A stretch of DNA of 64,000 nt, taken from Minisyncoccota bacterium. Its GTDB lineage: Bacteria; Patescibacteriota; Minisyncoccia; Phycocordibacterales; JAACPR01. Below the pieces are notes generated by a model that worked only from the letters and a program-made list of their open reading frames with translations, ran no database searches and was not told where the DNA came from. A program made the translations under genes and the position numbers. The DNA is taken from assembly GCA_041674225.1 (NCBI GenBank), contig JBAYWG010000001.1, forward strand, positions 169,401 through 233,400, given 5' to 3'. Below are positions 5,239-22,575 of the stretch, one piece after another (within the stretch, counting starts at the first letter, position 1; each line of letters opens with the position of its first letter).

Positions 5239-6066
5239 TCACACGGGGAGACCGGACTTTTGATACCCCTTGAGTATCAATTCCCTACATCGATTGAATG
5301 ATTTTTCAAAATCACCACTCAATTCTCCATCTTTCATAATTGAGATAAAGTGAGGTGGAAAATATTGAGTCCTGGTAGAAATTATTTCAGAGAAACTCTT
5401 CGTTTTAGTCTCTTCAGACATTCCCCAAAAAACCTCCGCGGCTTCAAAATTTTGTTTTGATTCAAACCAATAACCAAGATAGGAAAAAATTCTTTTAGGG
5501 TTGACGCGTTGATGAACCAGCATTCCGCCTATTTCAGTAAAAACATAAGCAAAATCGTCTTGAAGGTTTTTGTTTGGTTGAAATTTACCCAACACAGACA
5601 AAACTTCAACCAGATTTCCCATTTCTTCGCCAACGGTCAACGCCAATAATTCATAGGCCGGAACTTTTTCATTAAAAGCAATTGAGAATGAATCTCCTGC
5701 CCTGATTTTGTCATAGACTTCGATTAGAAGGGCTTTATGTTCTTCGAAAGAAACCTTTTCACTAATGAGCTTCAGGTTGGTCAGGATTGGTACATCCGAC
5801 CTAATTCCTTCGGCAATCAGGTTATACATTTTCCTCCGATCTTGATCCAGATCTTTTTCTCTAACCAGTTTTTGAAGATGATAGCTGATAAGAGGTCCTT
5901 GTGAATGATCTTCCAAACCTTCTTGGGAGATCTCGGTAACCGATGTCGGGTAAATAGACTTAGACCTCAAAGCTTCACAGACCTTGTCCATATCCTCCGC
6001 ATCCATTATTCCTTCCACCAAACCACCTCCATCGGATTTAAATCCAGTATATTTGAATCTTTTCAT
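5239..6066 (-). CDS. Hypothetical soluble protein. The N-terminus weakly resembles the cytoplasmic N-domain of PilC/GspF (FKYTGFKSDGGGLVEGIMDAEDMDKVCEALRSKSIYPTSV)
   Basis: 275-aa ORF with higher GC than its neighbours. No TM segments, so it is not a complete PilC. Confidence 0.45.
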   Translation of the reverse strand: MKRFKYTGFKSDGGGLVEGIMDAEDMDKVCEALRSKSIYPTSVTEISQEGLEDHSQGPLISYHLQKLVREKDLDQDRRKMYNLIAEGIRSDVPILTNLKLISEKVSFEEHKALLIEVYDKIRAGDSFSIAFNEKVPAYELLALTVGEEMGNLVEVLSVLGKFQPNKNLQDDFAYVFTEIGGMLVHQRVNPKRIFSYLGYWFESKQNFEAAEVFWGMSEETKTKSFSEIISTRTQYFPPHFISIMKDGELSGDFEKSFNRCRELILKGYQKSGLPV

Positions 6067-6257
6067 CTGTTTTCTCTATATTTGATTATTTCTTTACTTA
6101 AAGGTAGCCACTTGGAAACCTATTTCAATTTTGAGGTTAAACCTTTTGTAAGTGGTCGTCAAGGATTGAAATCAAATCCACTGAACCATTAAAGCAACTG
6201 GTCTTTGGCTTCAAAATATGTAATATAGTGCCAGAACAGAACTTCGCATAATAAAAA

Positions 6258-6938
6258 ATGATAAACCTAGAAGAATTAAACTCCGAATTGGAGGTTTTAC
6301 CACCGACAGACATTGTCCGTCACGCATTCAAAAACTTATTTGGAGACAGGCTTGTAGTAGCGTCTTCTTTTGGTGCTGACTCTGCTGTCATGCTTCACAT
6401 GGCAACACAAATCAATCCTCGGATACGAGTAATAATGATCGATACTGGATATCTTTTTCCGGAGACTCACGAGTATGTAATTACGCTTAAAGAAAGATTA
6501 AAGCTCAATCTGCACGTGTTTTATGGAAAAGAAACTCCCGAGGAGATGGAACGCAACCATGGGCAGCTTTGGGAATATGGTGAGGAAGGATTAAGCCTCT
6601 ACCACTCAATTCGAAAAGTTGAACCACTCAGGAGAGCGATTCAACAATTGAAAGTGAAAGGTATCCTCCATGGAGTCAGAAGAGATCAGACGGAACATCG
6701 TTCAAATTTGAACGTTATTGAAAGAGGATATGATGGAACATTCAAAATTCATCCGATTCTGAAATGGACTTCGCGAGATATTCGCAGCTACAATAAGACT
6801 CACAACCTACCGGAACATCCACTGTTTCTTCAAGGTTACGAATCAATTGGTGACATTCATAGCACAAAACCAGGTGAACGCCGCAGTGATCGAGATCTCG
6901 GAGAGAGTGATGAATGTGGGATAAATTATCAGATTTGA
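6258..6938 (+). CDS. cysH: Phosphoadenosine phosphosulfate (PAPS/APS) reductase family protein
   Basis: VVASSFGADSAVMLHMA (PP-loop-like SxGxDS), HPILKWTSRDIRSY, C-terminal ECGI..., all typical of CysH-type reductases. Confidence 0.75.
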   Translation: MINLEELNSELEVLPPTDIVRHAFKNLFGDRLVVASSFGADSAVMLHMATQINPRIRVIMIDTGYLFPETHEYVITLKERLKLNLHVFYGKETPEEMERNHGQLWEYGEEGLSLYHSIRKVEPLRRAIQQLKVKGILHGVRRDQTEHRSNLNVIERGYDGTFKIHPILKWTSRDIRSYNKTHNLPEHPLFLQGYESIGDIHSTKPGERRSDRDLGESDECGINYQI

Positions 6939-7433: not shown

Positions 7434-8294
7434 ATGCAAATAAAACGCCTTCTAAAAATAAGCCGACCGAGATTTTGGATTTATGAAATAGGTCCTTATA
7501 TTGTAGGAATTGCAGCAGCAGCGGGTATAACACTGAACGCGTGGCTTTTAATCCCCGCGATCATATTTTTCTTTTTTTTCACATATCCAGCAAATATTTT
7601 TATCTACGGAATTAATGACATTTTTGATTACGAAACAGATAAATTAAATCCAAAAAAAATATCCTACGAATCTCTTGTAATGCCGGAAGAGTGGCCAAAG
7701 CTTTGGAAAAATATTATTTTGTTTTGTGCGCCTTTTTTAGTCTATGGATTTTTTGTTTTAAATATTCAAAGCTTCATCGCGCTTCTGGCTTTCTTTTTCT
7801 TTGCGGGATTTTATTCATCTACACCGATCCGTGCAAAAGCTCGTCCTTTTTTAGACAGTATTTTTAGTGCAGGACATTATGTTGCTACAGCCGTGTTTTC
7901 ATATTTGATGATTAATTATTTTTTAAATCAAGAAATTACTTGGGTTAATCTCGCGATTGGCACACTTGCAGGAATGTTTTGGGCTATAGCTATGCATGCA
8001 TATTCCGCAGTTCCGGATATTCAAGCAGACAGAGATGCAAAACTAGAAACCATTGCTACAAAGTTAGAAAAAAATAAAACAATAATTTTATGCTCAGTTC
8101 TTTATGCACTTTCTGGAATTCTTGCTTTCAAATTTTTAGGGATAGTCAGCATTATCCTTTCACTTGTTTATGTTGTATTTATGATCAAATCAATCAAAAC
8201 AACAGACGAACAACTTTTCAAAATTTATACTTATTTCCCAAAAATAAATTCTCTTTCAGGAATGATTATTTTCTTTTCAGTTTTACTTAATTAG
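7434..8294 (+). CDS. UbiA-family aromatic/polyprenyl prenyltransferase (membrane). Given its neighbours, a candidate lycopene elongase or carotenoid/prenyl-lipid prenyltransferase
   Basis: NDIFDYETDKLNPKK (NDxxDxxxD motif) and multiple TM helices. Convergent with crtI. Confidence 0.7.
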   Translation: MQIKRLLKISRPRFWIYEIGPYIVGIAAAAGITLNAWLLIPAIIFFFFFTYPANIFIYGINDIFDYETDKLNPKKISYESLVMPEEWPKLWKNIILFCAPFLVYGFFVLNIQSFIALLAFFFFAGFYSSTPIRAKARPFLDSIFSAGHYVATAVFSYLMINYFLNQEITWVNLAIGTLAGMFWAIAMHAYSAVPDIQADRDAKLETIATKLEKNKTIILCSVLYALSGILAFKFLGIVSIILSLVYVVFMIKSIKTTDEQLFKIYTYFPKINSLSGMIIFFSVLLN

Positions 8295-9796
8295 ATTTCT
8301 TTTAGTGGTTCTGCGTCTTGTATATTTTCTAATCTTTTATAAACCAACTCTGCAGAAATTAAACAAATAGGCATACCGATTCCTGGATTTGTACCGGCAC
8401 CCACATAATAAAGATTCTTAACCTTCTTGCTAACATTATTCGGTCGAAAAATTGCAGTCTGACTCAATGAGTGTGCAAAACCTAGTGCAGTACCTTTAAA
8501 TGCATTGTAGTCCTTGATGAAGTCTTTTACAGAATAAAGCTTTTTATACACAATTCTATTTTTGAAATCTGGAATATCCATATTTTCTGCCATTTGATTT
8601 ATTACAAACTCAGAATATTCTTCTAGTGATTCATCAGTGTGATCTAAACCAGAAGCAATTGGCACAAGTACAAACAAATTTTCTTTATCAGCTGGCGCTA
8701 CATTTGCATCAGTTTTTGATGGACAACAAACATACAGAGAAGGATCTGTTGGCCATGTAGGTTTTTTAAATATTTGTGAAAAGTTTTCTTCCCAATTTTC
8801 AGCAAACAAAAGATTGTGGTGTTGCAGAGACGGAATTTTTCCTTCTACTCCCATGTACATAATAAATGCAGATGGTGCAAGCAATCGTGATTCCCAATAT
8901 TTTTTACTTTTCTCCCGGTGTGGCTCATCCAAAAGATGCATATCTGTGTGAGCAGTATCTGCATTTGAAATCACAATATCAGCTCGAAATTCTTGTCCGT
9001 TTTCCAATCTCACTCCCACAGCAGTTTTATTTTCAACAATAATTTTATTTACAGGACTGTTTAACAAAATCTCAACTCCGTGTTTTTTGGCAATAGTTTC
9101 CAACGCTTCTATGATTTTATAAATACCTCCTTCTGGATACCAAATTCCCTCCACAAAATCTACATAATTCATCATGCTATAAATCCCCGGCGCATCTCCA
9201 GGAGAAGTTCCAAGCAAAACAGTTTGATATTGCATTACTTTTCTCAGAATTTCGCTTTTGAATTTTTTCTCGATGATAGACTTCACACTTGAGAAGAGCG
9301 GGAGTTTTCTTCCTTCTTTCATTACTCTTTTGTTGAAGAAGTCAAAAATAGTATCGTAGTTTTTAAACATGAATTCATTTTTTGCGATTTCATATTGATA
9401 CTTTGTACTATCCATATATTTTCTCAAAACATCACCAGAACCCGGCTCCAAACTTTCAAAAGTTTCGATTGTTTTTTCTAAATCAGAATAAAAATCATAA
9501 TGTTTCTTTTCGCTTTTTAGAAAAATCCGGTACGAAGGAGAAAGTCTTTTTAATTTTAAATATTGAGTAATATCTTCACCCATCAATTTAAAAAAGTGCT
9601 CAAAAATATCTGGCATCATGTACCAAGACGGCCCCATATCAAAAACAAAACCATCTTCGGAATAGATTCTGGCTCTACCGCCGACTTGATCATTTTTTTC
9701 AATCATCTTCACCTTGTATCCCTTTTTAGCCAACATACAAGCCGTAGAAAGGCCTCCGATACCTGTTCCTATTATGATTACTTCTTTTTGACTCAT
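8291..9796 (-). CDS. crtI: Phytoene desaturase / CrtI-family FAD-dependent carotenoid desaturase
   Basis: VIIIGTGIGGLSTACMLAKKGYKVKMIEKNDQVGGRA FAD-binding N-terminus and length ~500 aa typical of CrtI. 4-nt overlap with crtB. Confidence 0.85.
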   Translation of the reverse strand: MSQKEVIIIGTGIGGLSTACMLAKKGYKVKMIEKNDQVGGRARIYSEDGFVFDMGPSWYMMPDIFEHFFKLMGEDITQYLKLKRLSPSYRIFLKSEKKHYDFYSDLEKTIETFESLEPGSGDVLRKYMDSTKYQYEIAKNEFMFKNYDTIFDFFNKRVMKEGRKLPLFSSVKSIIEKKFKSEILRKVMQYQTVLLGTSPGDAPGIYSMMNYVDFVEGIWYPEGGIYKIIEALETIAKKHGVEILLNSPVNKIIVENKTAVGVRLENGQEFRADIVISNADTAHTDMHLLDEPHREKSKKYWESRLLAPSAFIMYMGVEGKIPSLQHHNLLFAENWEENFSQIFKKPTWPTDPSLYVCCPSKTDANVAPADKENLFVLVPIASGLDHTDESLEEYSEFVINQMAENMDIPDFKNRIVYKKLYSVKDFIKDYNAFKGTALGFAHSLSQTAIFRPNNVSKKVKNLYYVGAGTNPGIGMPICLISAELVYKRLENIQDAEPLKEI

Positions 9797-10701
9797 GATT
9801 TTTTAATTAATGTTAAAAACGCTAACTTAAGTTTTTCTCCAAAACTTAAATGAACTCTGCCAGCGAAAATGTCGTATTTTACAACCTCTATCTTAACAAT
9901 AATTTTTGAATATAAAACTCGTGCTACTTTTATCGCTTTCGCCTCTCTTTTAGGCAACATTTGCAATCCGATATCAGCTTTTTTATAAAGATCTTCAGTT
10001 CTAGCAATTTCAAATTTCATCAAATCAATAAAATTTTGATTTATATTTTTATTAACTAAATCATCTTTTGTCACCCCAAACTTTTGCATTTCATCTTGTG
10101 GAAGATAAACTCTATCTCTTTGTATTACATCTTCATAAATATCGCGCAAAAAATTTGTCATTTGAAATGCTTCGCCAAGCGCTTTTGCATGATCTAGAAT
10201 TTTATTTCTATAATCTAAATCTGTAACAAATCTTTTATCTTTTGAACAAACTATATAAACCATCATATAACCCACTACTACAGCCGAACCATACATATAG
10301 TCTTCCAATTCTTTATAATTTTGATACTCAGTTTTTGAAGTATCTTGAATCATAGCCGAAATAAAATCTTCACTATATTCAAAAGAAATTTTGTATGTGT
10401 CAAAAACATATTTTGTGGCACGTAAAACTTTTAATTCATCTCCTTCGGCAAAATATTCTTCACCGCGATAACACTTACCCCACACCTCCTTCCACTCATT
10501 TAATTTTTCTAAAGCTAAATCTTTTTGATCTTTATATGTAGTATCTATATATTCATCTGGTAAACGAAAAAATGCATACAAAACACAGATCGCATCACGA
10601 TACTCCGCACCCATTAACAAAGTTCCAAAATAAAAACTCTTCCCATATTCTCGATGAACTCCTCTGCAAAACTCTAAATCTAAATTATATTCTGGGTACA
10701 T
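9793..10701 (-). CDS. crtB: Phytoene synthase (squalene/phytoene synthase family)
   Basis: YGKSFYFGTLLMGAEYRDAICVLYAFFRLPDEYID and YMYGSAVVVGYMM (YxYxVAGxVG) motifs. Confidence 0.85.
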   Translation of the reverse strand: MYPEYNLDLEFCRGVHREYGKSFYFGTLLMGAEYRDAICVLYAFFRLPDEYIDTTYKDQKDLALEKLNEWKEVWGKCYRGEEYFAEGDELKVLRATKYVFDTYKISFEYSEDFISAMIQDTSKTEYQNYKELEDYMYGSAVVVGYMMVYIVCSKDKRFVTDLDYRNKILDHAKALGEAFQMTNFLRDIYEDVIQRDRVYLPQDEMQKFGVTKDDLVNKNINQNFIDLMKFEIARTEDLYKKADIGLQMLPKREAKAIKVARVLYSKIIVKIEVVKYDIFAGRVHLSFGEKLKLAFLTLIKKS

Positions 10702-11804
10702 TAAGATTTTCTCTTATCAAGCAATATCACAAAATCAAACCACACGTCTTTGATCATTGGTTTAAGATTTGATTTCAAAATTATTTTGTTGGCTTTATCT
10801 AATTGAGAATGAATTTCCTTTTCAGCATAATCAATTGCGCCTGTTTCTTGAAAAAGTTTTTGCAATACAAGTACTGAATATTCATCAATTTCTTTTCCAA
10901 AAAGTGCTAAGAATATATTTCTATCATTTTCTTTGGCGTTTTCAAAAATATATTGCGTCAAAATTGTGTGTTGACCGTCTTGCACATCCAGCAACCTTTT
11001 CTTTCCTGTTTTTTTAGGATCTCCCACAATATCCAAAAGGTCGTCTTGTATTTGAAAAGCCTGACCCAAGCACAACCCCAATTCCTTATAAAAATCTTTG
11101 TTAATATTTTTTCCAGTCAAATTTGCACCGATCAACATTGGATTAACAAAAGAATAAAAGGCTGTTTTGTATTCATTTTTAAGAAAAATATCTTTCATCT
11201 CTACTTCGTACTGAAGCATAAAAGATACATCTAGTATTTGTCCTGCGACCACTTCCTCAATCATTCTAAAAAATATTTGCTGTACTTTTTTATTATTCAA
11301 ACTAGAAATAACTTCATGCGACCAACTAAAAATTAAATCTCCCGCCAAAATAGCAATGGATTCTGCAATGTGTTTTTTATCGCCTCGAGGATACGATGAA
11401 ATAAATTTTTCTAAATAAACATGCGTCGTGTCTTTGGAATGTCTTTCTACACCTTTATCAATAATATCATCATGAATCAAAGCAAACGCATGAAATAATT
11501 CTAAAGCAATTCCAGCTCGCAAAACTTCTTCTTGGTTCACACCACCTTCTGTAGAGTACGCCAAAAAAGCCATATATGGACGAACTCTTTTTCCACCTTC
11601 ACGTACCAAAGACACAGCATAGTCCACTGCTTCCAAACTTAATTTATTATCAGAAAAGTTTTTATAGTTTAAAACTTTGTCATCCAAATACTCATTTAAA
11701 CGAATATTAAAAATATCTTGAAAAGATTTCAGATCATACGCTTTTACAACAGGAATAAAGTTGATTTTTTCTAAGTGAAGGAAAGAAAGAATGTTTTTAA
11801 TCAT
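10701..11804 (-). CDS. Polyprenyl diphosphate synthase (GGPP/FPP synthase-type trans-prenyltransferase)
   Basis: First DDxxD (LIHDDIIDKG) and second DDxxD (FQIQDDLLDIVGDPKKTGKK) aspartate-rich motifs. Confidence 0.85.
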   Translation of the reverse strand: MIKNILSFLHLEKINFIPVVKAYDLKSFQDIFNIRLNEYLDDKVLNYKNFSDNKLSLEAVDYAVSLVREGGKRVRPYMAFLAYSTEGGVNQEEVLRAGIALELFHAFALIHDDIIDKGVERHSKDTTHVYLEKFISSYPRGDKKHIAESIAILAGDLIFSWSHEVISSLNNKKVQQIFFRMIEEVVAGQILDVSFMLQYEVEMKDIFLKNEYKTAFYSFVNPMLIGANLTGKNINKDFYKELGLCLGQAFQIQDDLLDIVGDPKKTGKKRLLDVQDGQHTILTQYIFENAKENDRNIFLALFGKEIDEYSVLVLQKLFQETGAIDYAEKEIHSQLDKANKIILKSNLKPMIKDVWFDFVILLDKRKS

Positions 11805-14371: not shown

Positions 14372-14601
14372 AACATCTATTATACCTTGTGAATCAATTA
14401 ATGACTGCCGAACTTCAACGATTTAATTATCGATGAATACAAGAAAGATAAAAATATCATCGTGGGATGAGTAAGTTGAAGGTGTTGTATAGGAAGTAAA
14501 GAAATCTTAATCTATTTACAAAAAATTATAGTGTTGTATAATATAAAAAGACATGCCCCAACTAAATTCAAACAAATCAGGCATGAAAACCTAGTACACT
14601 G

Positions 14602-15114
14602 ATGAAAAATATAGTTATCATTCTGTTAACTCTCACCATATTGATTCCAACTTTAACATTGGCCGATCGCGACCCAGTTGCGAGAGAAAAAATTGAAGAA
14701 ATCGAGAGAGTAATTCGAATCAATGGCTCTGAGAAATTTCTGAACGTCAACAATAACAAATCACTCGCAATCCAATTCTACGAGAACACCGAGCTCATGC
14801 TAATTGATCTCGATAAAGACGGCATCGCGGAATTTGTGAGGTTTAGGAATGAACGGGATATGTCTTCAAGAGACTTCTCTCGTAGAATCTGCACCTGGTT
14901 TATAACGGCCTGCACACCAACAGGTAATCCTGTCGGTGAGTGGGAAATCCGATACGACAACCAAGAACAAGGGCAGATTATTGCACTACTCTTCTTTTGC
15001 GAAAATGCCGAGTCTGCAGGTGTGAAGTCACTCCTATCGCCGATGCTTGTAACGAGTACCGGTATAATCAAAAAGGAACCTCTGGCTTTTCAGCTGAGTA
15101 AAGTCGATTGGTAA
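14602..15114 (+). CDS. Secreted hypothetical protein (signal peptide)
   Basis: MKNIVIILLTLTILIPTLTLADRDP signal-like N-terminus. Extended -10 (TGTTGTATAAT) upstream at ~14536-14548. First gene of the higher-GC segment. Confidence 0.5.
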   Translation: MKNIVIILLTLTILIPTLTLADRDPVAREKIEEIERVIRINGSEKFLNVNNNKSLAIQFYENTELMLIDLDKDGIAEFVRFRNERDMSSRDFSRRICTWFITACTPTGNPVGEWEIRYDNQEQGQIIALLFFCENAESAGVKSLLSPMLVTSTGIIKKEPLAFQLSKVDW

Positions 15115-15220
15115 GTCTCAAACAAAAGTTAGTACGGACCTGTCAGGAAGTAAAATTTCTGACAGGTTTTTTGTTTTCATAAAACCAACCAAAGCAAGCT
15201 AAATTTGATATTATTGATTC

Positions 15221-16078
15221 ATGAAAATCGCCATCATCACAGGAGGAGAAACAGGTGAACGAGAGGTCTCAATTAGATCAGCGAACAATGTTCGCAAAAT
15301 TGTAGATTTTGCAGAAACAACTATTTTCACATTTCCTGAAGACACAAAAAATTTTATTGAATCAGCGAAAGAATTTGATTTAGCAATACCAGTCATTCAC
15401 GGTATCGGAGGTGAAGACGGGAGTGTTCAAGGCTTATTCAAAAATTTACATATTCCTTTTATTTTTTCCGACATAAGCACGCATGCAATTGCGATAGATA
15501 AAAAATTTACAAAGGAAATTGCAGCATCACTTGGTATTACCTCTCCGAAAGAAACAAATGACTTCCCTCTCTTTGCAAAACCACGACACGGAGGTTCTTC
15601 TGTCTCTTCAAAATTTTGTGAATCTCAAAAAGATTTAGATGAACTTTTAAATACAAGTCCGGAAACAGATTTTCTTAAAGAAGAACCTATACGAGGAAGA
15701 GAATTTACAGTGGGTATCATCGATAATGGAGATGAGACAATTCCCTTGCCTGTTGTTGAAATAATAACCAACGGAGAATTTTTTGATTTTGAAAATAAAT
15801 ATAATCCCGAAAAACTAGCAACGGAAGTTTGTCCTGCAGAAATTGATATTTCACTTTCACAAGAATTACAAAGACAAGCGTTGTTAATTCACACTCATTT
15901 AAATACAAAATATTTATCTCGCTCTGACTTCATCGTAACTCCAGATAACAAAATATACTTTCTAGAAATAAATACTATTCCAGGAATGACCAACACCTCA
16001 CTGATTCCTAAAATGACGTCTGCCGCAAATCTTGATTTAAAAGAGATTTTTAAGTCTTGGTGTAGCAAACTGATCTAA
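15221..16078 (+). CDS. ddl: D-alanine--D-alanine ligase (short, 285 aa)
   Basis: MKIAIITGGETGEREVSIRSANNV N-domain and ATP-grasp C-terminus EINTIPGMTNTSLIPKMTSAANL. Confidence 0.8.
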   Translation: MKIAIITGGETGEREVSIRSANNVRKIVDFAETTIFTFPEDTKNFIESAKEFDLAIPVIHGIGGEDGSVQGLFKNLHIPFIFSDISTHAIAIDKKFTKEIAASLGITSPKETNDFPLFAKPRHGGSSVSSKFCESQKDLDELLNTSPETDFLKEEPIRGREFTVGIIDNGDETIPLPVVEIITNGEFFDFENKYNPEKLATEVCPAEIDISLSQELQRQALLIHTHLNTKYLSRSDFIVTPDNKIYFLEINTIPGMTNTSLIPKMTSAANLDLKEIFKSWCSKLI

Positions 16079-16080
16079 AC

Positions 16081-16120
16081 TAATAAAAGAAAAAGCCGGT
16101 TCGAGATGAGTCGAACCGGC
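16081..16120 (-). terminator. Rho-independent terminator for the minus-strand Ubl/E1/JAB unit (10-bp perfect stem gccggttcga/tcgaaccggc followed by a T-run on the minus strand)
   Basis: Read directly from the sequence. The T-tract is present only in the minus orientation. Confidence 0.65.
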
Positions 16121-16151
16121 TAAGTAAGTTAAGCCTGTTTGTTGGTAAGGC

Positions 16152-16520
16152 TTAGTTACCGCGAATCTTTGAAAAGATCAACACCTGTGCTCCTTCTTCG
16201 AGCACCTCCTCAAAATTGGAGATTGTCTGTCCGTTCAAACGAACCTCTCCTTCAATTTTGTCTCGATAACCGGCAATTACCAGCGCCTGTCTGATTGTGG
16301 TTCCAGAGTCCACCTCGAAAGGTTTGATCTGTCCACCGGGGAAAGCACCGACTTTCACGTTGATTTTCTCAACTTGTGCCGGAGTCTCCTTTTTGGAAGT
16401 TGCTTTCTTTGCAGCGGGTTTCTTGGTGGTTGCTTTCTTTGTGGTTCCTTTTTTCATGGTTCTTTTCTTTTGGTTTGTTTGTTGTTTACAGATTTTTTTA
16501 ACTGAACGACGAACCCACAA
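16152..16520 (-). CDS. Ubiquitin-like beta-grasp (ThiS/MoaD-like) protein with a Lys/Thr/Ala-rich histone-H1-like N-terminal tail. The C-terminus ...IFSKIRGN is not Gly-Gly
   Basis: The C-terminal ~75 aa (INVKVGAFPGG...EVRLNGQTISNFEEVLEEGAQVLIFSKIRGN) follow the ThiS/MoaD pattern. The N-terminal tail is MKKGTTKKATTKKPAAKKATSKKETPAQ. The gene overlaps the 3' end of the E1 gene by 23 nt; an alternative start is at 16457 (MKKGTTKK). Confidence 0.6.
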   Translation of the reverse strand: MWVRRSVKKICKQQTNQKKRTMKKGTTKKATTKKPAAKKATSKKETPAQVEKINVKVGAFPGGQIKPFEVDSGTTIRQALVIAGYRDKIEGEVRLNGQTISNFEEVLEEGAQVLIFSKIRGN

Positions 16521-17205
16521 TCATCATGGGTTGAAGTGAGAATATCAATTCATGCTCGAACTCATCGGTCGGTTCTTTACCTTCCTTAAGTTTCTGCATT
16601 TTCTGATACCATCGGATGAATTGCCACACAGCAAATCCCGAGACCATTTCTGCCGTCGGACCTACTGTGATAGTTGCTCCGCAAGCGGAGACTTCAGCAA
16701 CGTCATCACCATACAGAGTTTTTTCCCATCCCGAAACTTCTACGGGACTTGATGGATTCACTGTATAGATACGACCACTATTGGAACCCATACGAGTCTC
16801 AATAATAACCTCAACGTGAGGTCTGTAACGAAGTGATCCTTTCCAGATTTCTTGTCGTGAAGACATTGTATCTGTCAGCAGGAAAACAATCTGACCGAGA
16901 CGTTGTGTTCCATCAACTCGTTCATTGTGCACCGAAACTTCGGTACCTGTCTGCACGAGAATAATATCTTTCAACGCCTCAACCTTGAGTTGTCCATTGT
17001 GATTGTTACCGAATATTTGGTTTGGGACGTTGTGGGGTTCCACTACATCCGGATCCCAAATGTGAATGTTACGGATACCGAGCTTCGCCAACGAAAGGGC
17101 GATTCTAGATCCTGTAGCACCCACACCTATGATATCGATACGTCTATCACCAAATTCTTGCGGTGAAAACACATCAAGGTGTCTTATTACGTCTAGTTCT
17201 GGCAT
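16498..17205 (-). CDS. Minimal E1-like ubiquitin-activating/ThiF-MoeB family adenylyltransferase (235 aa, no rhodanese or zinc-ribbon domain)
   Basis: IDIIGVGATGSRIALSLAKLGIRNIHIWDPDVVEPHNVPNQIFG combines the GxGxxG P-loop and the DxDxVExxN...Q motif of the ThiF/MoeB/E1 superfamily. Confidence 0.8.
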   Translation of the reverse strand: MPELDVIRHLDVFSPQEFGDRRIDIIGVGATGSRIALSLAKLGIRNIHIWDPDVVEPHNVPNQIFGNNHNGQLKVEALKDIILVQTGTEVSVHNERVDGTQRLGQIVFLLTDTMSSRQEIWKGSLRYRPHVEVIIETRMGSNSGRIYTVNPSSPVEVSGWEKTLYGDDVAEVSACGATITVGPTAEMVSGFAVWQFIRWYQKMQKLKEGKEPTDEFEHELIFSLQPMMIVGSSFS

Positions 17206-17237
17206 TCTCTCTCCTTCTAGTTTTTATTGGTTATATC

Positions 17238-18023
17238 TTAACGAAACCTTTTCCGGAAAAACCGGGGTTTATATTTTCCTCCAAAACCCTTGAAAAAGGG
17301 TGGTGAATACGGAGCGAACCGCAAAGCAGTAACTTTCCGTTTCATTTCCTCCCGAAGATCATTACGAATTTCATCCAGTTTGTCCCAGTCATCTATGTCT
17401 TCTTCTGTCCATTTCCATGGAACAGAATGAAAAGCGAAACCCTTCTCCCAGTCATAAATTCCGAAATTGATATCTCCTTGACGATTTAAGATACCGCGCA
17501 AGAAAAAATCAGTACCGAAACTTTGAAAGATTTTCATCTGATCATTATCTTGACCAGATGGGTAAGTTCCACCATTTCCATGTGAATGTCCCCAGAAGCG
17601 TATGTTGTTGAAGATTTCGTCACCACCTTCTTTCGAAAGGATTTCCATGACAAATTCTTGAAGAGCTTCTGGAAGAATTTCAGTATGGCCACCGCTCACA
17701 GTCTGAGGAAAGAGGAACACGTCATCGATGATGAAGTCTTCTCCTAGTCGCCGAGCAGTTCCAAGCCACCCCACTTCAATATTGATTGCACCTACAATAA
17801 CGTACATCTTGAAGAGGGCCAATGGACTGACAAATACAGTCGGAATATGGTGTTTCAACGTCAGAACTTCCAGAGTTGTATGGAAAACATCCGACGGAGC
17901 AAAAAATTGTCCGTCTGTCTCTGCGAATTCCCATTGGTAAGGCTGCGGAGGGGTTGGAGTATATGGGCGAGGAGCACCAACAATTTTTGCTGGCAGAGGG
18001 AGTTTAGTATTGTTTTTTTTCAT
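17238..18023 (-). CDS. JAB/JAMM (MPN+) metalloprotease-domain protein with a ~120-aa N-terminal extension
   Basis: Exact JAMM signature WGHSHGNGGTYPSGQD (HxHx7Sx2D) with an upstream acidic residue. 32 nt upstream of the E1 gene. Confidence 0.8.
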   Translation of the reverse strand: MKKNNTKLPLPAKIVGAPRPYTPTPPQPYQWEFAETDGQFFAPSDVFHTTLEVLTLKHHIPTVFVSPLALFKMYVIVGAINIEVGWLGTARRLGEDFIIDDVFLFPQTVSGGHTEILPEALQEFVMEILSKEGGDEIFNNIRFWGHSHGNGGTYPSGQDNDQMKIFQSFGTDFFLRGILNRQGDINFGIYDWEKGFAFHSVPWKWTEEDIDDWDKLDEIRNDLREEMKRKVTALRFAPYSPPFFKGFGGKYKPRFFRKRFR

Positions 18024-18112
18024 TTAGATTCGATTGTGAAGGTTCTTTTTATACTACTTCTGTAATTCTTTTATTATATTTTAAGGGTTTTGTCAATACC
18101 CCACCCCTTTTT

Positions 18113-18152
18113 ATCTAATATAAAAAACCGCTCTCAGAAACTCTGAGAGCGG
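18113..18152 (-). terminator. Rho-independent terminator downstream of the 543-aa gene (stem accgctctcag/ctgagagcggt, T-run on minus strand)
   Basis: Read directly from the sequence. Confidence 0.6.
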
Positions 18153-18167
18153 TTTGACTTAAAGCCA

Positions 18168-19799
18168 TTATTTGATAGCAAGACTGCCATCAAATTCCTT
18201 CAAGAATTCCAGGACCAGCTCGATTACTGTTTCCAGATCGAGTTCTCCAAGAAGTTCCGGCAATGTCGCATGAAGAGGACCTATGGGTAGCCCTCCATCC
18301 CACATTGGGTGCAAATGAGGAATATTAATATCCGGCTCCATTTCGTTACCGATCGGAGAAATACTAACTAATCCTTTCAACACGTTGCACAAAATACGAA
18401 ACGATCCGATGTTGTGAATTTTTTCGGTTGAAATGTCCCTGCTTTTGATAGATCTAGTATCAACAACGAAGACATCATCTCCCTTGAAAAAGACACCCGA
18501 GACTTCCGGCCAGGCACTCACCCTTTGGATACGTTCATTGAACAAATCAGTGGTCACAGCAGCAGGAACCTTTACAAGGTTTTGGATAAAAACGTTTTGC
18601 GCTATCATCATCTGATTGCGACGAATATTATTCATCAACTTTTTCAGTTCATTTTCCTTATCCTGCTTCTGTGCTGCTCGTTCATCTACGAACAGATTAC
18701 GGAAAGCCGAGATCACGACAGGATCTTTAAGCGGTGGCTTTTTTGGATAATCGATACTTTTATCAACAACAGGAAACTTCCTCAAAACAGTGAGGTAATC
18801 TCCGTAATGAATTTCGTTTATCGTTCCAATTGCTTTAATGGCAACAAGGATGGACGCTTCGAACTCATAATCCTTGAGTAAAGGAAGAATAACCTTTCCT
18901 TCCCCCATACAAAATTGATTCGTGTACCGATCCACATGAGGATGACCAAAAGTGTGTCTTTCATACTCAACTCGACGAGTGAGGTTTTTAAACACAGCAG
19001 GTGTTTCTTCACCACCTCCAAAGAGAAGCTTGATCTCAAATTGTCCAAATTCATGAAGAATTTTAGTTCCGGGATCAACAGCATACATGGTCTGTGTGGT
19101 GAAAATGATTCTTCTACCATCCACTCTAATGTTCTGAATCTCAGGAATATTCCAAAGAGTTTGAAGCACCTTATCAGCTTCTTCGTAAGCTTGCTGGTTG
19201 TCATCATTCTTTGATACCAAAGAAGAAGTCAAAACAATATCGTTTTGAATCAGCCGACGATTTTCTGTAAGCTGTTTTTGAAGATCAACATCTTTCTTGG
19301 ACTTAGGAATTTTGAATTTCCCATTCTTGATTTGAACAAGACTAGGCAAATCTCCCCTGATGAGATTCATTGCTTCTGTAAGAATGTGTTTATACACATC
19401 CACGTTCGGCTTATTACAGCAATTGTTAGAAGCATCGTAAAGCAAATACAGATTATTTTTTCCAACGAGTTCTGCAACAGCATAATTGCTTTCAGGATCC
19501 ACAATAACAATCCCTCTACCAGAAGGTTGATATAGAGTACGATTACATGTACGAACTCTTTGTTTCCACAACTCGTCTGGAAGCGTCAATTCGACCTTAT
19601 CACCATCAGCAGTACCGAAGACGTTAAGAAAAAATGTAGTTGAAAAACGACGTACATCTCTTTGTCTTCCTTGACAGTTGTACAGTTGAATTTCATTGAA
19701 CCCCAATATTTCCAATGCATCACCCAAAACATCTCGGGTAGCTGATTCAAAAGAATCCGCAACACGAAAATCCCAATTTGTTTTTTCTATTCTTATCAT
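18168..19799 (-). CDS. Large hypothetical protein (543 aa) with a central UBC-like E2 active-site signature (ERHTFGHPHVDRYTNQFCMGEG; compare canonical HPN[IV]x3-4GxIC) flanked by uncharacterised N- and C-terminal regions
   Basis: Same strand and GC regime as the Ubl/E1/JAB genes. The E2-like call is motif-level only. Confidence 0.45.
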   Translation of the reverse strand: MIRIEKTNWDFRVADSFESATRDVLGDALEILGFNEIQLYNCQGRQRDVRRFSTTFFLNVFGTADGDKVELTLPDELWKQRVRTCNRTLYQPSGRGIVIVDPESNYAVAELVGKNNLYLLYDASNNCCNKPNVDVYKHILTEAMNLIRGDLPSLVQIKNGKFKIPKSKKDVDLQKQLTENRRLIQNDIVLTSSLVSKNDDNQQAYEEADKVLQTLWNIPEIQNIRVDGRRIIFTTQTMYAVDPGTKILHEFGQFEIKLLFGGGEETPAVFKNLTRRVEYERHTFGHPHVDRYTNQFCMGEGKVILPLLKDYEFEASILVAIKAIGTINEIHYGDYLTVLRKFPVVDKSIDYPKKPPLKDPVVISAFRNLFVDERAAQKQDKENELKKLMNNIRRNQMMIAQNVFIQNLVKVPAAVTTDLFNERIQRVSAWPEVSGVFFKGDDVFVVDTRSIKSRDISTEKIHNIGSFRILCNVLKGLVSISPIGNEMEPDINIPHLHPMWDGGLPIGPLHATLPELLGELDLETVIELVLEFLKEFDGSLAIK

Positions 19800-19865
19800 T
19801 TTGTACTAGGTATAATTTTAAAACAACTTCTGGCAGAAGAATATAACACAAATCAAGACATGTCA

Positions 19866-19906
19866 ATTATTAAAATAAAAAGCCGCCACCCAACCAGGGT
19901 GGCGGC
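19866..19906 (-). terminator. Rho-independent terminator downstream of the FAD-oxidoreductase gene (10-bp stem gccgccaccc/gggtggcggc, T-run on minus strand)
   Basis: Read directly from the sequence. Confidence 0.65.
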
Positions 19907-19913
19907 ATACACA

Positions 19914-21467
19914 TCAGCGAGCGAGCTGATATTCCGCGCTTCTCATAACAACACCAAACAAAACATCTCCAATCCGATGAAGCATGCCAGGAATGACGAT
20001 GGCATTCGGGTTGTGAGGAGTTTCCAACACAGACCCAAAGCCGTAATAACCAGACAAAATCCGCTTCTTAGGATCAGGACTGTGTTTGACGATAAACTCT
20101 CCATCGTAATCAAACAAAGGACACTTATCTACAGGATCGTAGGTGCAGCCCATGCTTTTCATAACTTCCGGCGAATTACCATACCCAATGAGTGTCATGA
20201 TCTTCCCAAAGGGAATTTTTTCAACCTCAGAGTGCTCTTTACGAAAGACGTAGACTTCCTTTCCAGCAACTTCCCAACGATTGACTCCATAAAGAATTTT
20301 TCCATTGTGAAGCGCACGGTAGTAATCACTACGACTTCTCGCAAGATCTCCCTGAAAATCAACCAGATTAGGAAGGGATACATCCCGAAATAATCTGCGT
20401 GCAACTCCATCAACGACAACAGTCGTGTTTGGATTATAAACACATTCTTCAGGGTAGTGAGTAAGAACACGATAGTCCACAGCCGCACCTCGATCAATCA
20501 GATTATGAATCTGAAAAAGCATCTCTGCCGTTGAATTACCGAGTCCGACGAGGATAATTCTCTTACCCTCAACTTCATCGCGATCAATAACCTTCTGCCA
20601 ACGTGAACCGGCTTGGGCAGTGGTCGCTTCAGTAGTCATGCGACTTGGATCAGAAAGCGGTTTTGGTTTACCGAGACCAATCGTATTAATAACGATTGGA
20701 AAAGTTTCTTTTTTTCCATTAGCGAAATGAAGCACGTGCTTCAACTTACCAGGAACAATCTTGACCACCGTCTCCTTTTTAGAACGGTAAGCTAGATTAT
20801 CTAGGAACCGGCGAACTTCTTCACCATCTCCAGGTGCAGGCCGCAAGATTCTATCAAAGAATTGTAGCTGACGTGGATTATTCCTAGACAGTCCAAAGAC
20901 ATTGTTCTGACTCCAGATACCCAGCGGCTTAGACTTCTCATATATGGTAATGTTATTAAAACCAAGTTGTCTGAGCGCGTAAGTGATAAGAATCCCCGCA
21001 GCCCCATAACCGACAACGGCAATTGGAACTCGAGACAAGGAATTTGGAATAGTAGATTGGCTGACAAAAAAAGTTGCCGCACCCTCTCCTAAAAACTGTT
21101 CCGGACTCCGAAGACCGCTATTGGCAAGAGCCAAATCGATACGACGATTCTGCAAATGTTCACCTCGATATTCAGGAAGATTATCTTCACTGTCGATAAA
21201 AGGAAGTGCTTGGGCATAACCATTAAGAACTCCTCCAACATCACCGACTCGAAGAACCAATTCAGAAAAAAGGTTACCCCAACGTCCTGTGTTTGACATT
21301 TCTTGGACAGCATCAAGACTGAATCCTTTCTCGTCAATCCATCTTCTCAGAACACCCAGCGAAACCTTTTTCATAAAAGAATCTCCTAGGGTCTTGAGCT
21401 TTTCACAAGCAGTCACTAAGTCACGAGGAGTTCTTTTTGAACTCATTCTTTTTGAAGCGGTATTCAT
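19914..21467 (-). CDS. FAD/NAD(P)-binding oxidoreductase with two dinucleotide-binding motifs (flavin monooxygenase / pyridine-nucleotide-disulfide-oxidoreductase-like) and a ~150-aa N-terminal extension
   Basis: VPIAVVGYGAAGILITYALRQLGFNNITIYEKSKPLG (GxGxxG) and RIILVGLGNSTAEMLFQIHNL (GxGxxA) Rossmann motifs. Confidence 0.7.
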   Translation of the reverse strand: MNTASKRMSSKRTPRDLVTACEKLKTLGDSFMKKVSLGVLRRWIDEKGFSLDAVQEMSNTGRWGNLFSELVLRVGDVGGVLNGYAQALPFIDSEDNLPEYRGEHLQNRRIDLALANSGLRSPEQFLGEGAATFFVSQSTIPNSLSRVPIAVVGYGAAGILITYALRQLGFNNITIYEKSKPLGIWSQNNVFGLSRNNPRQLQFFDRILRPAPGDGEEVRRFLDNLAYRSKKETVVKIVPGKLKHVLHFANGKKETFPIVINTIGLGKPKPLSDPSRMTTEATTAQAGSRWQKVIDRDEVEGKRIILVGLGNSTAEMLFQIHNLIDRGAAVDYRVLTHYPEECVYNPNTTVVVDGVARRLFRDVSLPNLVDFQGDLARSRSDYYRALHNGKILYGVNRWEVAGKEVYVFRKEHSEVEKIPFGKIMTLIGYGNSPEVMKSMGCTYDPVDKCPLFDYDGEFIVKHSPDPKKRILSGYYGFGSVLETPHNPNAIVIPGMLHRIGDVLFGVVMRSAEYQLAR

Positions 21468-21535
21468 TTGTATGTAATATGGGTTTAAAATTGAACAGTA
21501 TTCGTTTTCGAAATTAACATTATTTTATGCTATTG

Positions 21536-22462
21536 TCAATTTTTTTGGAATTTAATAGTTTGTTCTGTCCAATCAAAATATGGCCAGCTCACAATATTAT
21601 TTCTAGCAAGAATTCTAGGACCCCAATATGATAAGAAGAAAGTTCCAGAGACAATAAGAAGTACAGCAGTAAGGATTACCACACGATTAGTTTTAGCATT
21701 AAGCCATTTTTCAAATCTACCTCCAGTTCCATAGAAAAGAATCAAAAACAATACTGCCATTACAATAATATTTCCAATCCCCTGAAGAACAAAAGCGAGG
21801 CTACCATAAAATGGATTATGAGTTGAGGCCGCGTATTCAAACATTTTTCTAAAAAGTGGAAAGGGACGACCAATTAAAAATGCACCTATAGTTGCACCCA
21901 TGATAAAAGGAGCGGCCCACACATGTTTTGCAAAAAACTTCGAGAATGGATTAGGAATTACTTTAATAGTTCCCAATCCCCAAATAATATAAGTGATTCC
22001 AATCAAGCAGAATACAACAACCGACTGCAAGAGTCGCACTGGCATTCCATTTGAAAGTTGCTCGGTTGAAAGCTGAGGAAGGTTCGAGCCAATCAAAGCA
22101 CCTATCCCGCCATAAAGCGCAGCTACAACAATTAGACCAAGTGACAAAAATCCTAAAGGCTTCAAGACACTTCCAGTTGATCTCTTTCCACTTGAAAGTG
22201 GAGCGATCGCACTAAAAGCACAAATGTTGCAAGCAGTGAAAGTTCCTGCCAAACCTGAAACAAAGGCAAATAATGCACCCATAATTATTCCAGTAATTGG
22301 AGTAGTCTTAGCATCATATCCAAGAAGATTATTAGCTATAGGATCTCCAAGATCACTATCCACAAATGAAGCTGACCAAAATACACTTATAAGAAAACCC
22401 AACAAAACGCTACCTACCACTATTAAAGTTTTTTGTTTTCGGCTTATATTAATTTGTTCCAT
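21536..22462 (-). CDS. Polytopic integral membrane protein (~8 TM) with a Cys pair inside a TM helix (AGTFTACNICAFSAIAPL), possibly DsbD/CcdA-like
   Basis: Hydrophobicity pattern. Last gene before tRNA-Gln. GC like the island. Confidence 0.45.
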   Translation of the reverse strand: MEQINISRKQKTLIVVGSVLLGFLISVFWSASFVDSDLGDPIANNLLGYDAKTTPITGIIMGALFAFVSGLAGTFTACNICAFSAIAPLSSGKRSTGSVLKPLGFLSLGLIVVAALYGGIGALIGSNLPQLSTEQLSNGMPVRLLQSVVVFCLIGITYIIWGLGTIKVIPNPFSKFFAKHVWAAPFIMGATIGAFLIGRPFPLFRKMFEYAASTHNPFYGSLAFVLQGIGNIIVMAVLFLILFYGTGGRFEKWLNAKTNRVVILTAVLLIVSGTFFLSYWGPRILARNNIVSWPYFDWTEQTIKFQKN

Positions 22463-22502
22463 ATTTCTAAACTACAATTTTAATATGAACATGTCAATTT
22501 TA

Positions 22503-22575
22503 GGTTGCCCGACAGGGATTCGAACCCCGATTAATGGCTCCAGAAACCACTGTCCTACCATTAGACGATCAGGCA
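22503..22575 (-). tRNA. tRNA-Gln (anticodon CUG)
   Basis: Hand-folded cloverleaf: acceptor UGCCUGA/UCGGGCA with the U1:A72 pair typical of bacterial tRNA-Gln, D-arm GUCU-AAUGGUA-GGAC, anticodon arm GUGGU-UUCUGGA-GCCAU, T-arm CGGGG-UUCGAAU-CCCUG. CCA not encoded. Confidence 0.8.

Follow-up and report, generated by a model that had tools for sequence, protein, structure and literature searches.

A GC-rich five-gene block downstream of tRNA-Gln in a Patescibacteria genome probably encodes a ubiquitination-like conjugation cassette

What is the GC-rich DNA that lies next to a tRNA-Gln gene in this Patescibacteria genome, and is it an island integrated at that tRNA? The window, a 64,000-nucleotide stretch of contig JBAYWG010000001.1 (assembly GCA_041674225.1; the metagenome-assembled genome is annotated Candidatus Paceibacterota, Patescibacteria/candidate phyla radiation (CPR), and the genes discussed here carry NCBI locus tags WC087_00980-01015), had been read in an initial annotation as holding an island of about 8 kb, 14400-22575, that abuts the 3' end of the tRNA and carries a ubiquitin-like protein (Ubl), an E1, a JAB peptidase, a secreted protein and a D-Ala-D-Ala ligase (ddl). 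We find that the true extent of the compositional anomaly is a 5.4-kb block of five genes, 16079-21535. We consider it fairly probable that this block is an acquired, self-contained cassette encoding a ubiquitination-like protein-conjugation system, a role in conflict or stress being the weakest step of that proposal. All five of its proteins are now annotated "hypothetical" or generic "ThiF". The block reads as follows, its genes and predicted signals being given 5' to 3' along the minus strand (lengths in amino acids, aa).

16079-21535, no strand assigned: GC-rich five-gene cassette, delimited by composition, with gene-for-gene homologues in other contexts in four other loci (L083-L086)
21506-21543, minus: promoter-like element for the flavoprotein gene, TTGACA-17-TAATTT, its TTGACA overlapping the stop codon of the upstream membrane-protein gene
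19914-21467, minus: FAD/NAD(P)-binding oxidoreductase-like protein ("flavoprotein"), 517 aa, an accessory gene in its own transcription unit, with weak Pfam matches to NAD_binding_8 and Pyr_redox_2
19882-19906 (within 19838-19906), minus: predicted terminator after the flavoprotein gene, a 10-pair stem (9 G-C) plus TTTTTATTTT
19838-19866, minus: promoter-like site for the E2-like gene, TTGACA-17-TATTCT, 10/12 matches
18168-19799, minus: E2-like protein, 543 aa, assigned by an AlphaFold2 (AF2) model and a profile-profile match to E2s
19320-19799, minus: N-terminal domain of the E2-like protein, of unknown fold
18765-19202, minus: putative active E2/UBC-like domain, followed by a long helix
18897-18947, minus: candidate active-site motif GHPHVDRYTNQFCMGEG, residues 285-301, with the Cys297 codon at 18909-18911
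18180-18530, minus: putative inactive E2-like duplicate, residues about 424-540
18125-18155, minus: terminator/attenuator-like hairpin between the E2-like and JAB genes, a 14-pair stem with a T-rich tail
17238-18023, minus: JAB/JAMM metallopeptidase, 261 aa, with a complete JAMM motif, HSHGNGGTYPSGQD, at 17547-17588
16498-17205, minus: ThiF/MoeB-type single-domain E1 adenylyltransferase, 235 aa (Pfam ThiF, 2.9e-17)
16152-16457, minus: Ubl, 101 aa, or 122 aa should translation begin at the TTG at 16520
16094-16121, minus: intrinsic-terminator hairpin after the JAB-E1-Ubl unit, an 11-pair stem then TTTTTCTTTT, with a 73-bp gap before the convergent ddl

Composition sets the limits of the block. 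Against 5,457-bp windows that do not overlap it, which average 34.5% GC (sd 1.1, maximum 36.7%; the window overall is 35.5%), the block stands at 41.8%, and its five minus-strand genes, from 16152 to 21467, have GC at third codon positions (GC3) of 0.35-0.48, compared with 0.244 ± 0.045 for the genes of the window (n = 50; z = +2.4 to +5.3). In codon-usage distance, too, they exceed the background, and the tetranucleotide profile peaks at 16-18 kb (z 2.8) and again at 19-21 kb (z 2.0). The anomaly is not continuous: ddl and the membrane-protein gene next to the tRNA lie at the background mean, and 14602-15114 is a separate GC-rich gene. The rise in GC reported in the initial annotation is therefore a real anomaly, and 17281-17340 is indeed 48% GC, but 14400-22575 as a whole is 40.2% GC rather than 43-50%, and the comparison stretch at 8291-8350 is 28% rather than 33%. 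Likewise, the GC, tetranucleotide and codon-usage plots proposed there do reveal an outlier, but one confined to 16079-21535 plus 14602-15114.

The block also appears to be transcriptionally self-contained, because strong hairpin terminators are predicted after the flavoprotein, 543-aa and Ubl genes. The promoter-like element of the flavoprotein gene has a weak -10 hexamer and was read directly, not being listed by the promoter scan; it is one of a 38-nt repeat pair (family D3; 21506-21543 and 22464-22501), both members of which are TTGACA-17-TAnnTT promoter-like elements on the minus strand, the first lying before the flavoprotein gene and the second before the membrane-protein gene. The 543-aa gene is the E2 component and the flavoprotein gene is part of the recurring cassette; both had been overlooked.

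The protein that turns a Ubl, an E1 and a JAB into a candidate conjugation system is the 543-aa one. We predict that it joins, behind its N-terminal domain, an active E2-like domain and an inactive one of E2-variant type, because its C-terminal module duplicates the catalytic module (99% probability, E 8e-18 by hhalign) with both the HPH and the Cys lost. Profile-profile comparison by hhalign with six eukaryotic E2s, whose query sequences were approximate, gave 79% probability and an E value of 1.6e-5 over 103 columns and placed the His-Pro and Cys297 on the catalytic residues; at the level of fold, residues 200-345 have the features of a UBC/E2 domain, namely an alpha/beta-meander/alpha arrangement, with which the secondary structure of the AF2 model agrees, and an HPN-type motif that a Cys follows about 10 residues later. 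None of 21 family members departs from H286 or C297, and P287 and H288 are nearly invariant. The family motif GHPHVDR..WC.GEG is invariant, one superfamily member reads HPNINDNGWC, and the superfamily consensus of the active site is [HA]PH[VI]xxxGxxC[LM]G. The AF2 model built with 21 sequences has a pLDDT (predicted local distance difference test) of 85.6 and consists of helix/beta-meander/helix modules joined by a 50-residue helix; a model from 2 sequences (pLDDT 45) was unusable. Foldseek support for a UBC fold is weak, the sole PDB sequence match of the E2-like domain profile is a non-significant one to the UBE2W active site (HPHVYSNGHICL, E 1.8), and the full protein has no PDB sequence match.

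Neither the 543-aa protein, its relatives nor the E2-like domain matches a family in Pfam, NCBIfam, PHROGs or PADLOC, single members giving scattered weak Pfam hits. A word-indexed homologue search found one or two relatives, and an exhaustive HMMER search of the representative library found at least 696. About 20 of these are full length; the remainder share roughly residues 60-345 within varied architectures of 370-1100 aa, and the 10 of them that were checked have no Pfam domain. Separately, five viral proteins in BFVD (A0A516KZW4, A0A516LAI7, A0A516ML27, A0A516M3P8 and A0A516LW79; 423-542 aa) match the model in Foldseek at E 6e-4 to 5e-2.

Judged by their motifs, the E1, JAB and Ubl look catalytically competent. 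The E1 carries a GVGATGS loop at 17107-17127 and Cys175 within an SACG motif at 16678-16689; at least 809 homologues were found, and in a set of 24 the GxGAxGSR loop, several Asp/Asn/Lys positions and Cys175 are invariant. Its best PDB sequence matches are PaaA and MoeB, its best NCBIfam match is ThiF, and it matches the Cap2 E1-E2 models of PADLOC partially, with E down to 8e-15 over about 90 residues. The JAB has the complete HxHx7Sx2D motif and an upstream Glu (GGHTE, 17679-17693), its match to Pfam Prok-JAB falling below threshold. The Ubl ends in ...FSKIRGN, with Gly-Asn at 16155-16160, and aligns with the small open reading frame that follows the E1 gene in every cassette locus. All nine Ubls examined (from the window, L083-L086, L088, L097, L098 and L099) end in G-N plus 0-1 residue, some as GNN or GNA; the invariant Asn may reflect the P1' specificity of the JAB or a chemistry of its own. 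A distant member of the Ubl family matches Pfam ThiS (1.4e-4). At its other end the window Ubl has a Lys/Thr/Ala-rich, histone-H1-like N-terminal tail (16377-16457). Lys/Gly/Ala-rich tails are also present in its two nearest relatives (L098 1100-1390 and L099 3700-3996) and not in the more distant cassette Ubls. The flavoprotein has a dinucleotide-binding loop, GYGAAG, at 20994-21011, and its PDB profile matches are limited to the FAD Rossmann motif of flavin monooxygenases and amine oxidases.

Motifs and homology together suggest a route of conjugation. The JAMM peptidase would cut the pro-Ubl before its invariant C-terminal Asn (...RG|N), leaving the Gly exposed, and the minimal ThiF-type E1 would adenylate this Gly, possibly with a thioester on Cys175. 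Next, Cys297 in the E2-like domain of the 543-aa protein would receive the Ubl. The inactive duplicate and N-terminal domain of this protein might stand in for an E3 or for a ubiquitin E2 variant (UEV) partner by binding the target, or else an acceptor Ubl, and so allow transfer of the Ubl to a lysine. The JAMM peptidase could also reverse the modification, and the flavoprotein would be an accessory partner.

The Ubl, E1 and JAB could instead serve a small-molecule pathway, either as a sulfur carrier (thiocarboxylate) or in an Asn modification of the MccB/PaaA kind, with the flavoprotein as a tailoring enzyme. The E1 matches named above, PaaA and MoeB in PDB and ThiF in NCBIfam, are those such a pathway would predict; MccB-type enzymes require a C-terminal Asn, and here the Asn after Gly is invariant; and a flavin enzyme is linked in four of the five Patescibacteria loci compared. 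However, an E2-like protein with an invariant HPH...C is found in every cassette and in the same gene order, three of the loci (L086, L097 and L099) lack the flavoprotein, and some Ubls close with GNN or GNA, which leaves the Asn after Gly in a non-terminal position. Family scans, moreover, found no rhodanese, cysteine desulfurase, peptide-clamp domain, exporter or immunity gene in the cassette. We regard a small-molecule pathway as very improbable and protein conjugation as the better account of the five genes.

The cassette recurs elsewhere. The order FAD protein-(DUF6008)-E2-like-JAB-E1-Ubl is found in L083, L084 and L085, where homologues of the flavoprotein adjoin the other genes, and a four-gene core is found in L086, L097 and L099. 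A DUF6008 membrane protein, absent from the window, accompanies the flavoprotein in the first three (L083 5933-6529, L084 6647-7219 and L085 8473-9039), and this coupling of a flavin monooxygenase-like enzyme with DUF6008 in the Patescibacteria subfamily hints at a redox- or membrane-linked function. Identities to the window proteins are 67-71% for E1, 52-54% for the flavoprotein, 44-48% for JAB, 39-46% for Ubl and 30-35% for the E2-like protein. The surroundings of the cassette differ from genome to genome: it lies beside guaA in L083, between ClpB and L33 in L084, between RuvA/S20 and RuvX in L085, beside a sigma factor in the complete 943-kb genome of L086, and between L21 and the RuvX/map/adk/secY genes in L097, with no recombinase near any of these other Patescibacteria cassettes. 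A more distant arrangement, Ubl-JAB-E1-405 aa-286 aa, occurs in L088-L090. Some E1 homologues carry Cyanobacteriota or Obscuribacterales names, and the nearest E1 of all (78% identical) is on a contig of 68% GC, the next (74%) on one of 55% GC. Tentatively, and at somewhat less than even odds in our estimate, the cassette may represent an undescribed and widely dispersed ubiquitination-like family, spread over Patescibacteria, Cyanobacteriota/Melainabacteria and high-GC bacteria and marked by a minimal E1, a JAMM peptidase, a Gly-Asn Ubl and an HP[NH]...C E2 fused to a UEV-like copy.

Is the block, then, an island integrated at the tRNA? The genes between and beyond bear directly on this.

22503-22575, minus: tRNA-Gln(CTG), called by ARAGORN, at the edge of a conserved PrfB-FtsE-FtsX-PyrG-tRNA-Gln synteny block
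21536-22462, minus: 308-aa multi-pass membrane protein between the cassette and tRNA-Gln; GC3 0.249, z +0.1
15221-16078, plus: ddl, 285 aa (Pfam Dala_Dala_lig_C 5e-38, and Dala_Dala_lig_N); GC3 0.234, z -0.2
14602-15114, plus: predicted secreted protein, 170 aa, a GC-rich single-gene unit beyond ddl; GC3 0.462, z 4.9

The 3' end of the tRNA, at 22503 on the minus strand, does face the segment, as had been said. The GC-rich block, though, stops about 1 kb short of it, at about 21.5 kb, because the 927-bp membrane-protein gene that touches the tRNA intervenes, a gene that is host-like in composition and has a promoter-like site of its own. The 22-nt sequence of the tRNA 3' end, which had been expected to recur as a direct repeat, has no second copy in the window even when up to 3 mismatches are allowed, and a search for direct and inverted repeats over 12-24 kb found no att-like direct repeat of at least 12 nt, its matches being due to chance or promoter-like elements. 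The reported absence of an integrase stands, with no recombinase or transposase domain in any gene of the window between 1 and 30 kb.

What lies beyond the tRNA in related genomes was seen in 80 related PyrG loci from a scan of 185,579 species-representative genomes, in which the closest genomes found share 60-69% PyrG identity with the host. FtsX, FtsE and PrfB accompany PyrG in 57-68 of these loci, and a same-strand tRNA-Gln follows PyrG within 5 kb in about 39 of the 80, many of the other contigs ending early. Beyond the tRNA the order dissolves: in the 34 loci with enough sequence, no gene family occurs in more than 5 loci within 5 kb, and none is common to the window. Large serine recombinases (Resolvase + Recombinase + Zn_ribbon_recom) lie 1-2.8 kb downstream of tRNA-Gln in L038 and L048, and the 3' flank of the tRNA holds a GmrSD_N gene in L050 and a PD-(D/E)xK nuclease in L006; a repeat search at the tRNA-Gln flank of the recombinase-carrying relatives found no att repeats. 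The synteny of the relatives ends at the tRNA and in some of them genes of recombinase or restriction type follow; tRNA-Gln therefore separates a conserved block from a region that is variable and partly mobile in this lineage. In one relative, L028, two tRNA-Gln(CTG) genes (15954-16025 and 19451-19524) lie 3.5 kb apart downstream of PyrG, and there an inserted element may carry its own tRNA copy.

These observations lend the island some appeal, in the form of a degraded element of about 8 kb (14.4-22.5 kb) that a recombinase integrated at the tRNA-Gln 3' end and that has since lost its integrase and att repeat. The segment lies on the 3'-end side of the tRNA, the synteny of relatives stops exactly there, serine recombinases and nuclease genes occupy the same flank in relatives, serine recombinases do not leave long direct repeats, and the tRNA-adjacent membrane protein is sporadic in distribution. 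Set against this, ddl and the tRNA-touching gene are host-like in GC3 and codon usage, with ddl sitting between the GC-rich gene at 14.6 kb and the cassette; no integrase or transposase is present between 1 and 30 kb; the tRNA 3'-end sequence is unique; and in five other genomes the cassette is not beside tRNA-Gln or a recombinase. The composition does not deviate over the whole of the supposed element, as that of a tRNA-borne island would. An 8-kb island integrated at the tRNA, with no abutment, no integrase, no duplicated tRNA 3' end and host-like genes at ddl and at the tRNA, thus appears quite unlikely. Of the original proposal of foreign DNA with Ubl/E1/JAB cargo, what survives is that part of the segment looks foreign and carries the cassette; the whole 8 kb does not. 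The ddl gene, listed as cargo, falls out of it, its codon distance being within background, and the secreted-protein gene is GC-rich, as was said, but forms a unit of its own, apart from the cassette. A rise in GC beside a tRNA does not by itself make an integrated island, a lesson for annotation generally.

How did the cassette arrive? Most likely the five-gene block was horizontally acquired, into the variable region downstream of tRNA-Gln. Transfer is suggested because the cassette sits in unrelated housekeeping contexts and because the nearest E1 is on a contig of 68% GC. A native block, vertically inherited, whose higher GC reflects gene-specific constraints (amino acids, codon or mRNA selection, GC-rich terminators), is an unlikely alternative, though one with observations in its favour. 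The GC of the cassette is at or above that of its flanks in 5/5 loci compared; within the cassette GC3 peaks at the Ubl gene in every host, whatever the host GC (0.48 to 0.82; window, L083-L086 and L097), including hosts of 45-65% GC; GC1 of the cassette genes is high too; and the fast decay of gene order in Patescibacteria makes differing contexts weak evidence. Amino-acid content, however, cannot account for the shift in GC3 and synonymous codons. The cassette is found in 0/80 related PyrG loci, and the 543-aa protein has very few close homologues. The 78% identity of the nearest E1, on the 68% GC contig, exceeds the identity of the host PyrG to any sampled species (at most 69% to any locus returned). 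Finally, cassette GC3 equals host GC3 in L086 and L084, as expected if composition tracks residence time and donor. We therefore retain horizontal acquisition as the reading of the block.

Several observations weigh against the reading of an acquired conjugation cassette as a whole. In all five loci compared the cassette is no poorer in GC than its flanks, and GC3 is always highest in the Ubl gene; some of the GC signal may therefore be intrinsic instead of a mark of recent transfer. The closest genomes found for a comparison of the site share no more than 60-69% PyrG identity. The beta-grasp fold of the window Ubl is a prediction, and the proposed route leaves the part of the flavoprotein unaccounted for. 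Among the cassette proteins, PADLOC models match the E1 alone, by its partial Cap2 matches, the cassette has housekeeping genes and not defence islands as neighbours in all loci, and neither the narrow family of the E2-like protein nor the E1 has a match in IMG/VR.

These last points bear above all on biological role. By analogy with Bil (Bacterial ISG15-like), Bub and CBASS (cyclic oligonucleotide-based antiphage signalling system), the role would most plausibly be related to conflict or stress, and antiviral, and this is the weakest step of the proposal. The housekeeping neighbourhoods and the absence from viral contigs leave it without independent support.

Of the genes around the cassette, the 308-aa membrane protein is found in 0/80 related PyrG loci, and its only homologues (46-61% identity; metagenome scan, short contigs) are on contigs of 45-60% GC that are not Patescibacteria-like and have no tRNA nearby. 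The gene could be an older, ameliorated acquisition, and its membership in the acquired DNA is uncertain. In L091 (1610-2326) a homologue of it adjoins a weakly DUF6008-like protein (pairwise E 0.01); we do not claim that the tRNA-adjacent protein replaces DUF6008 on the strength of one weak pairwise match of a neighbour's neighbour. The 170-aa secreted protein has a promoter-like site at 14515-14542 (11/12 matches) and a terminator at 15136-15169; it has no family match in the family scans, forms a singleton cluster and has no match among the fetched loci.

Elsewhere in the window, a 674-aa PG_binding_1 protein on the minority strand (41957-43981, plus) deviates most of all in tetranucleotide composition (z 4.2) and also shows a high codon-usage distance, and adjacent T2SSF-like and PAPS reductase genes (5239-6938; GC3 0.36, z 2.6) form a second, weaker outlier. 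An isoprenoid/carotenoid-like cluster at 7434-11804 (UbiA prenyltransferase, amine-oxidase/phytoene-desaturase-like protein, SQS_PSY and polyprenyl synthase) is notable for a reduced Patescibacteria genome.

Type II CBASS, Bil and Bub have only recently been shown to conjugate proteins, and they bear on the origin of eukaryotic ubiquitination. If our reading is true, the cassette would add a new branch, one with a classical E2 HPN-type site and an inactive E2 copy in one chain and with the smallest possible E1, and in the Patescibacteria, ultra-small and host-dependent organisms about whose defence and proteostasis very little is known, it would be the first one to be pointed out. We found no paper describing this cassette family, the literature search being incomplete and an earlier description therefore possible, and nothing relevant on DUF6008 or on ubiquitin-like systems in Patescibacteria/CPR.

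How does the cassette compare with systems already known? The E1 is closest, among defence models, to the adenylation domain of Cap2 of type II CBASS, where the partner Cap3 is likewise a JAB. Unlike type II CBASS, the cassette has no CD-NTase or effector (PADLOC, Pfam), its E1 and E2 are separate genes, and it has a dedicated Ubl, whereas in CBASS the CD-NTase C-terminus is the conjugated moiety. Bub (6E/DUF6527) shares operons of Ubl, E1, E2 and peptidase and variable N-terminal extensions of the Ubl. Its E1 and E2 lack the catalytic Cys, however, and it uses an oxyester route and a DUF6527 serine protease, whereas the E1 and E2-like protein here have an invariant Cys and Pfam finds no DUF6527. 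The ThiS/MoaD-ThiF/MoeB systems with a JAB (CysO-Mec+, QbsE-QbsD) resemble it in having a small beta-grasp-type protein with a blocked Gly, a single-domain adenylyltransferase and a JAMM peptidase, but here an E2-like protein with a catalytic Cys is always present, and there is no sulfurtransferase or downstream biosynthetic gene. With tRNA-linked islands the locus shares DNA of foreign composition in a variable region 3' of a tRNA, and recombinase or restriction-type genes at the tRNA of relatives; it differs in having no integrase or att repeat, in the gene of host composition that intervenes and in the placement of the cassette away from tRNAs elsewhere. In Ubc13-UEV pairs an active E2 is paired with an inactive E2 variant. 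The 543-aa protein would unite in one chain what Ubc13-Mms2/Uev1a divides between an active E2 and a dead E2-fold partner, an analogy of architecture only, with no specific sequence relationship.

Bil (BilABCD; type 6d of Iyer 2006) offers a further comparison, having separate Ubl, E2-type, JAB/JAMM and E1 genes in one operon, no E3, and a sporadic, mobile distribution. In Bil the Ubl continues past its reactive Gly, and the JAB trims the extra residue or residues; the Ubl here likewise continues past its candidate reactive Gly. BilC of Ensifer aridi (E. aridi) shortens BilA by exactly one residue, cutting after the reactive Gly (bioRxiv 10.1101/2023.09.26.559546). Bil operons contain no E3, and it has been proposed that targets are recognised directly by the Bil E2 (bioRxiv 10.1101/2024.11.21.623953). 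Measured against Bil component by component, the JAB/JAMM peptidase is present with its HxHx7Sx2D motif and upstream Glu, and the Ubl has the ...RG-N end, the weak ThiS match that would speak for a beta-grasp fold being confined to the distant member. The E1 is a single 235-aa ThiF domain where that of Bil is IAD-AAD-CYS, and no sequence relationship to solved Bil chains is detectable. Type 6d E2s are small, stand-alone proteins without the classical His; here the E2-like protein has 543 aa, keeps the HP[NH] histidine and carries its inactive duplicate, and a flavoprotein, with or without the DUF6008 membrane protein, joins the cassette.

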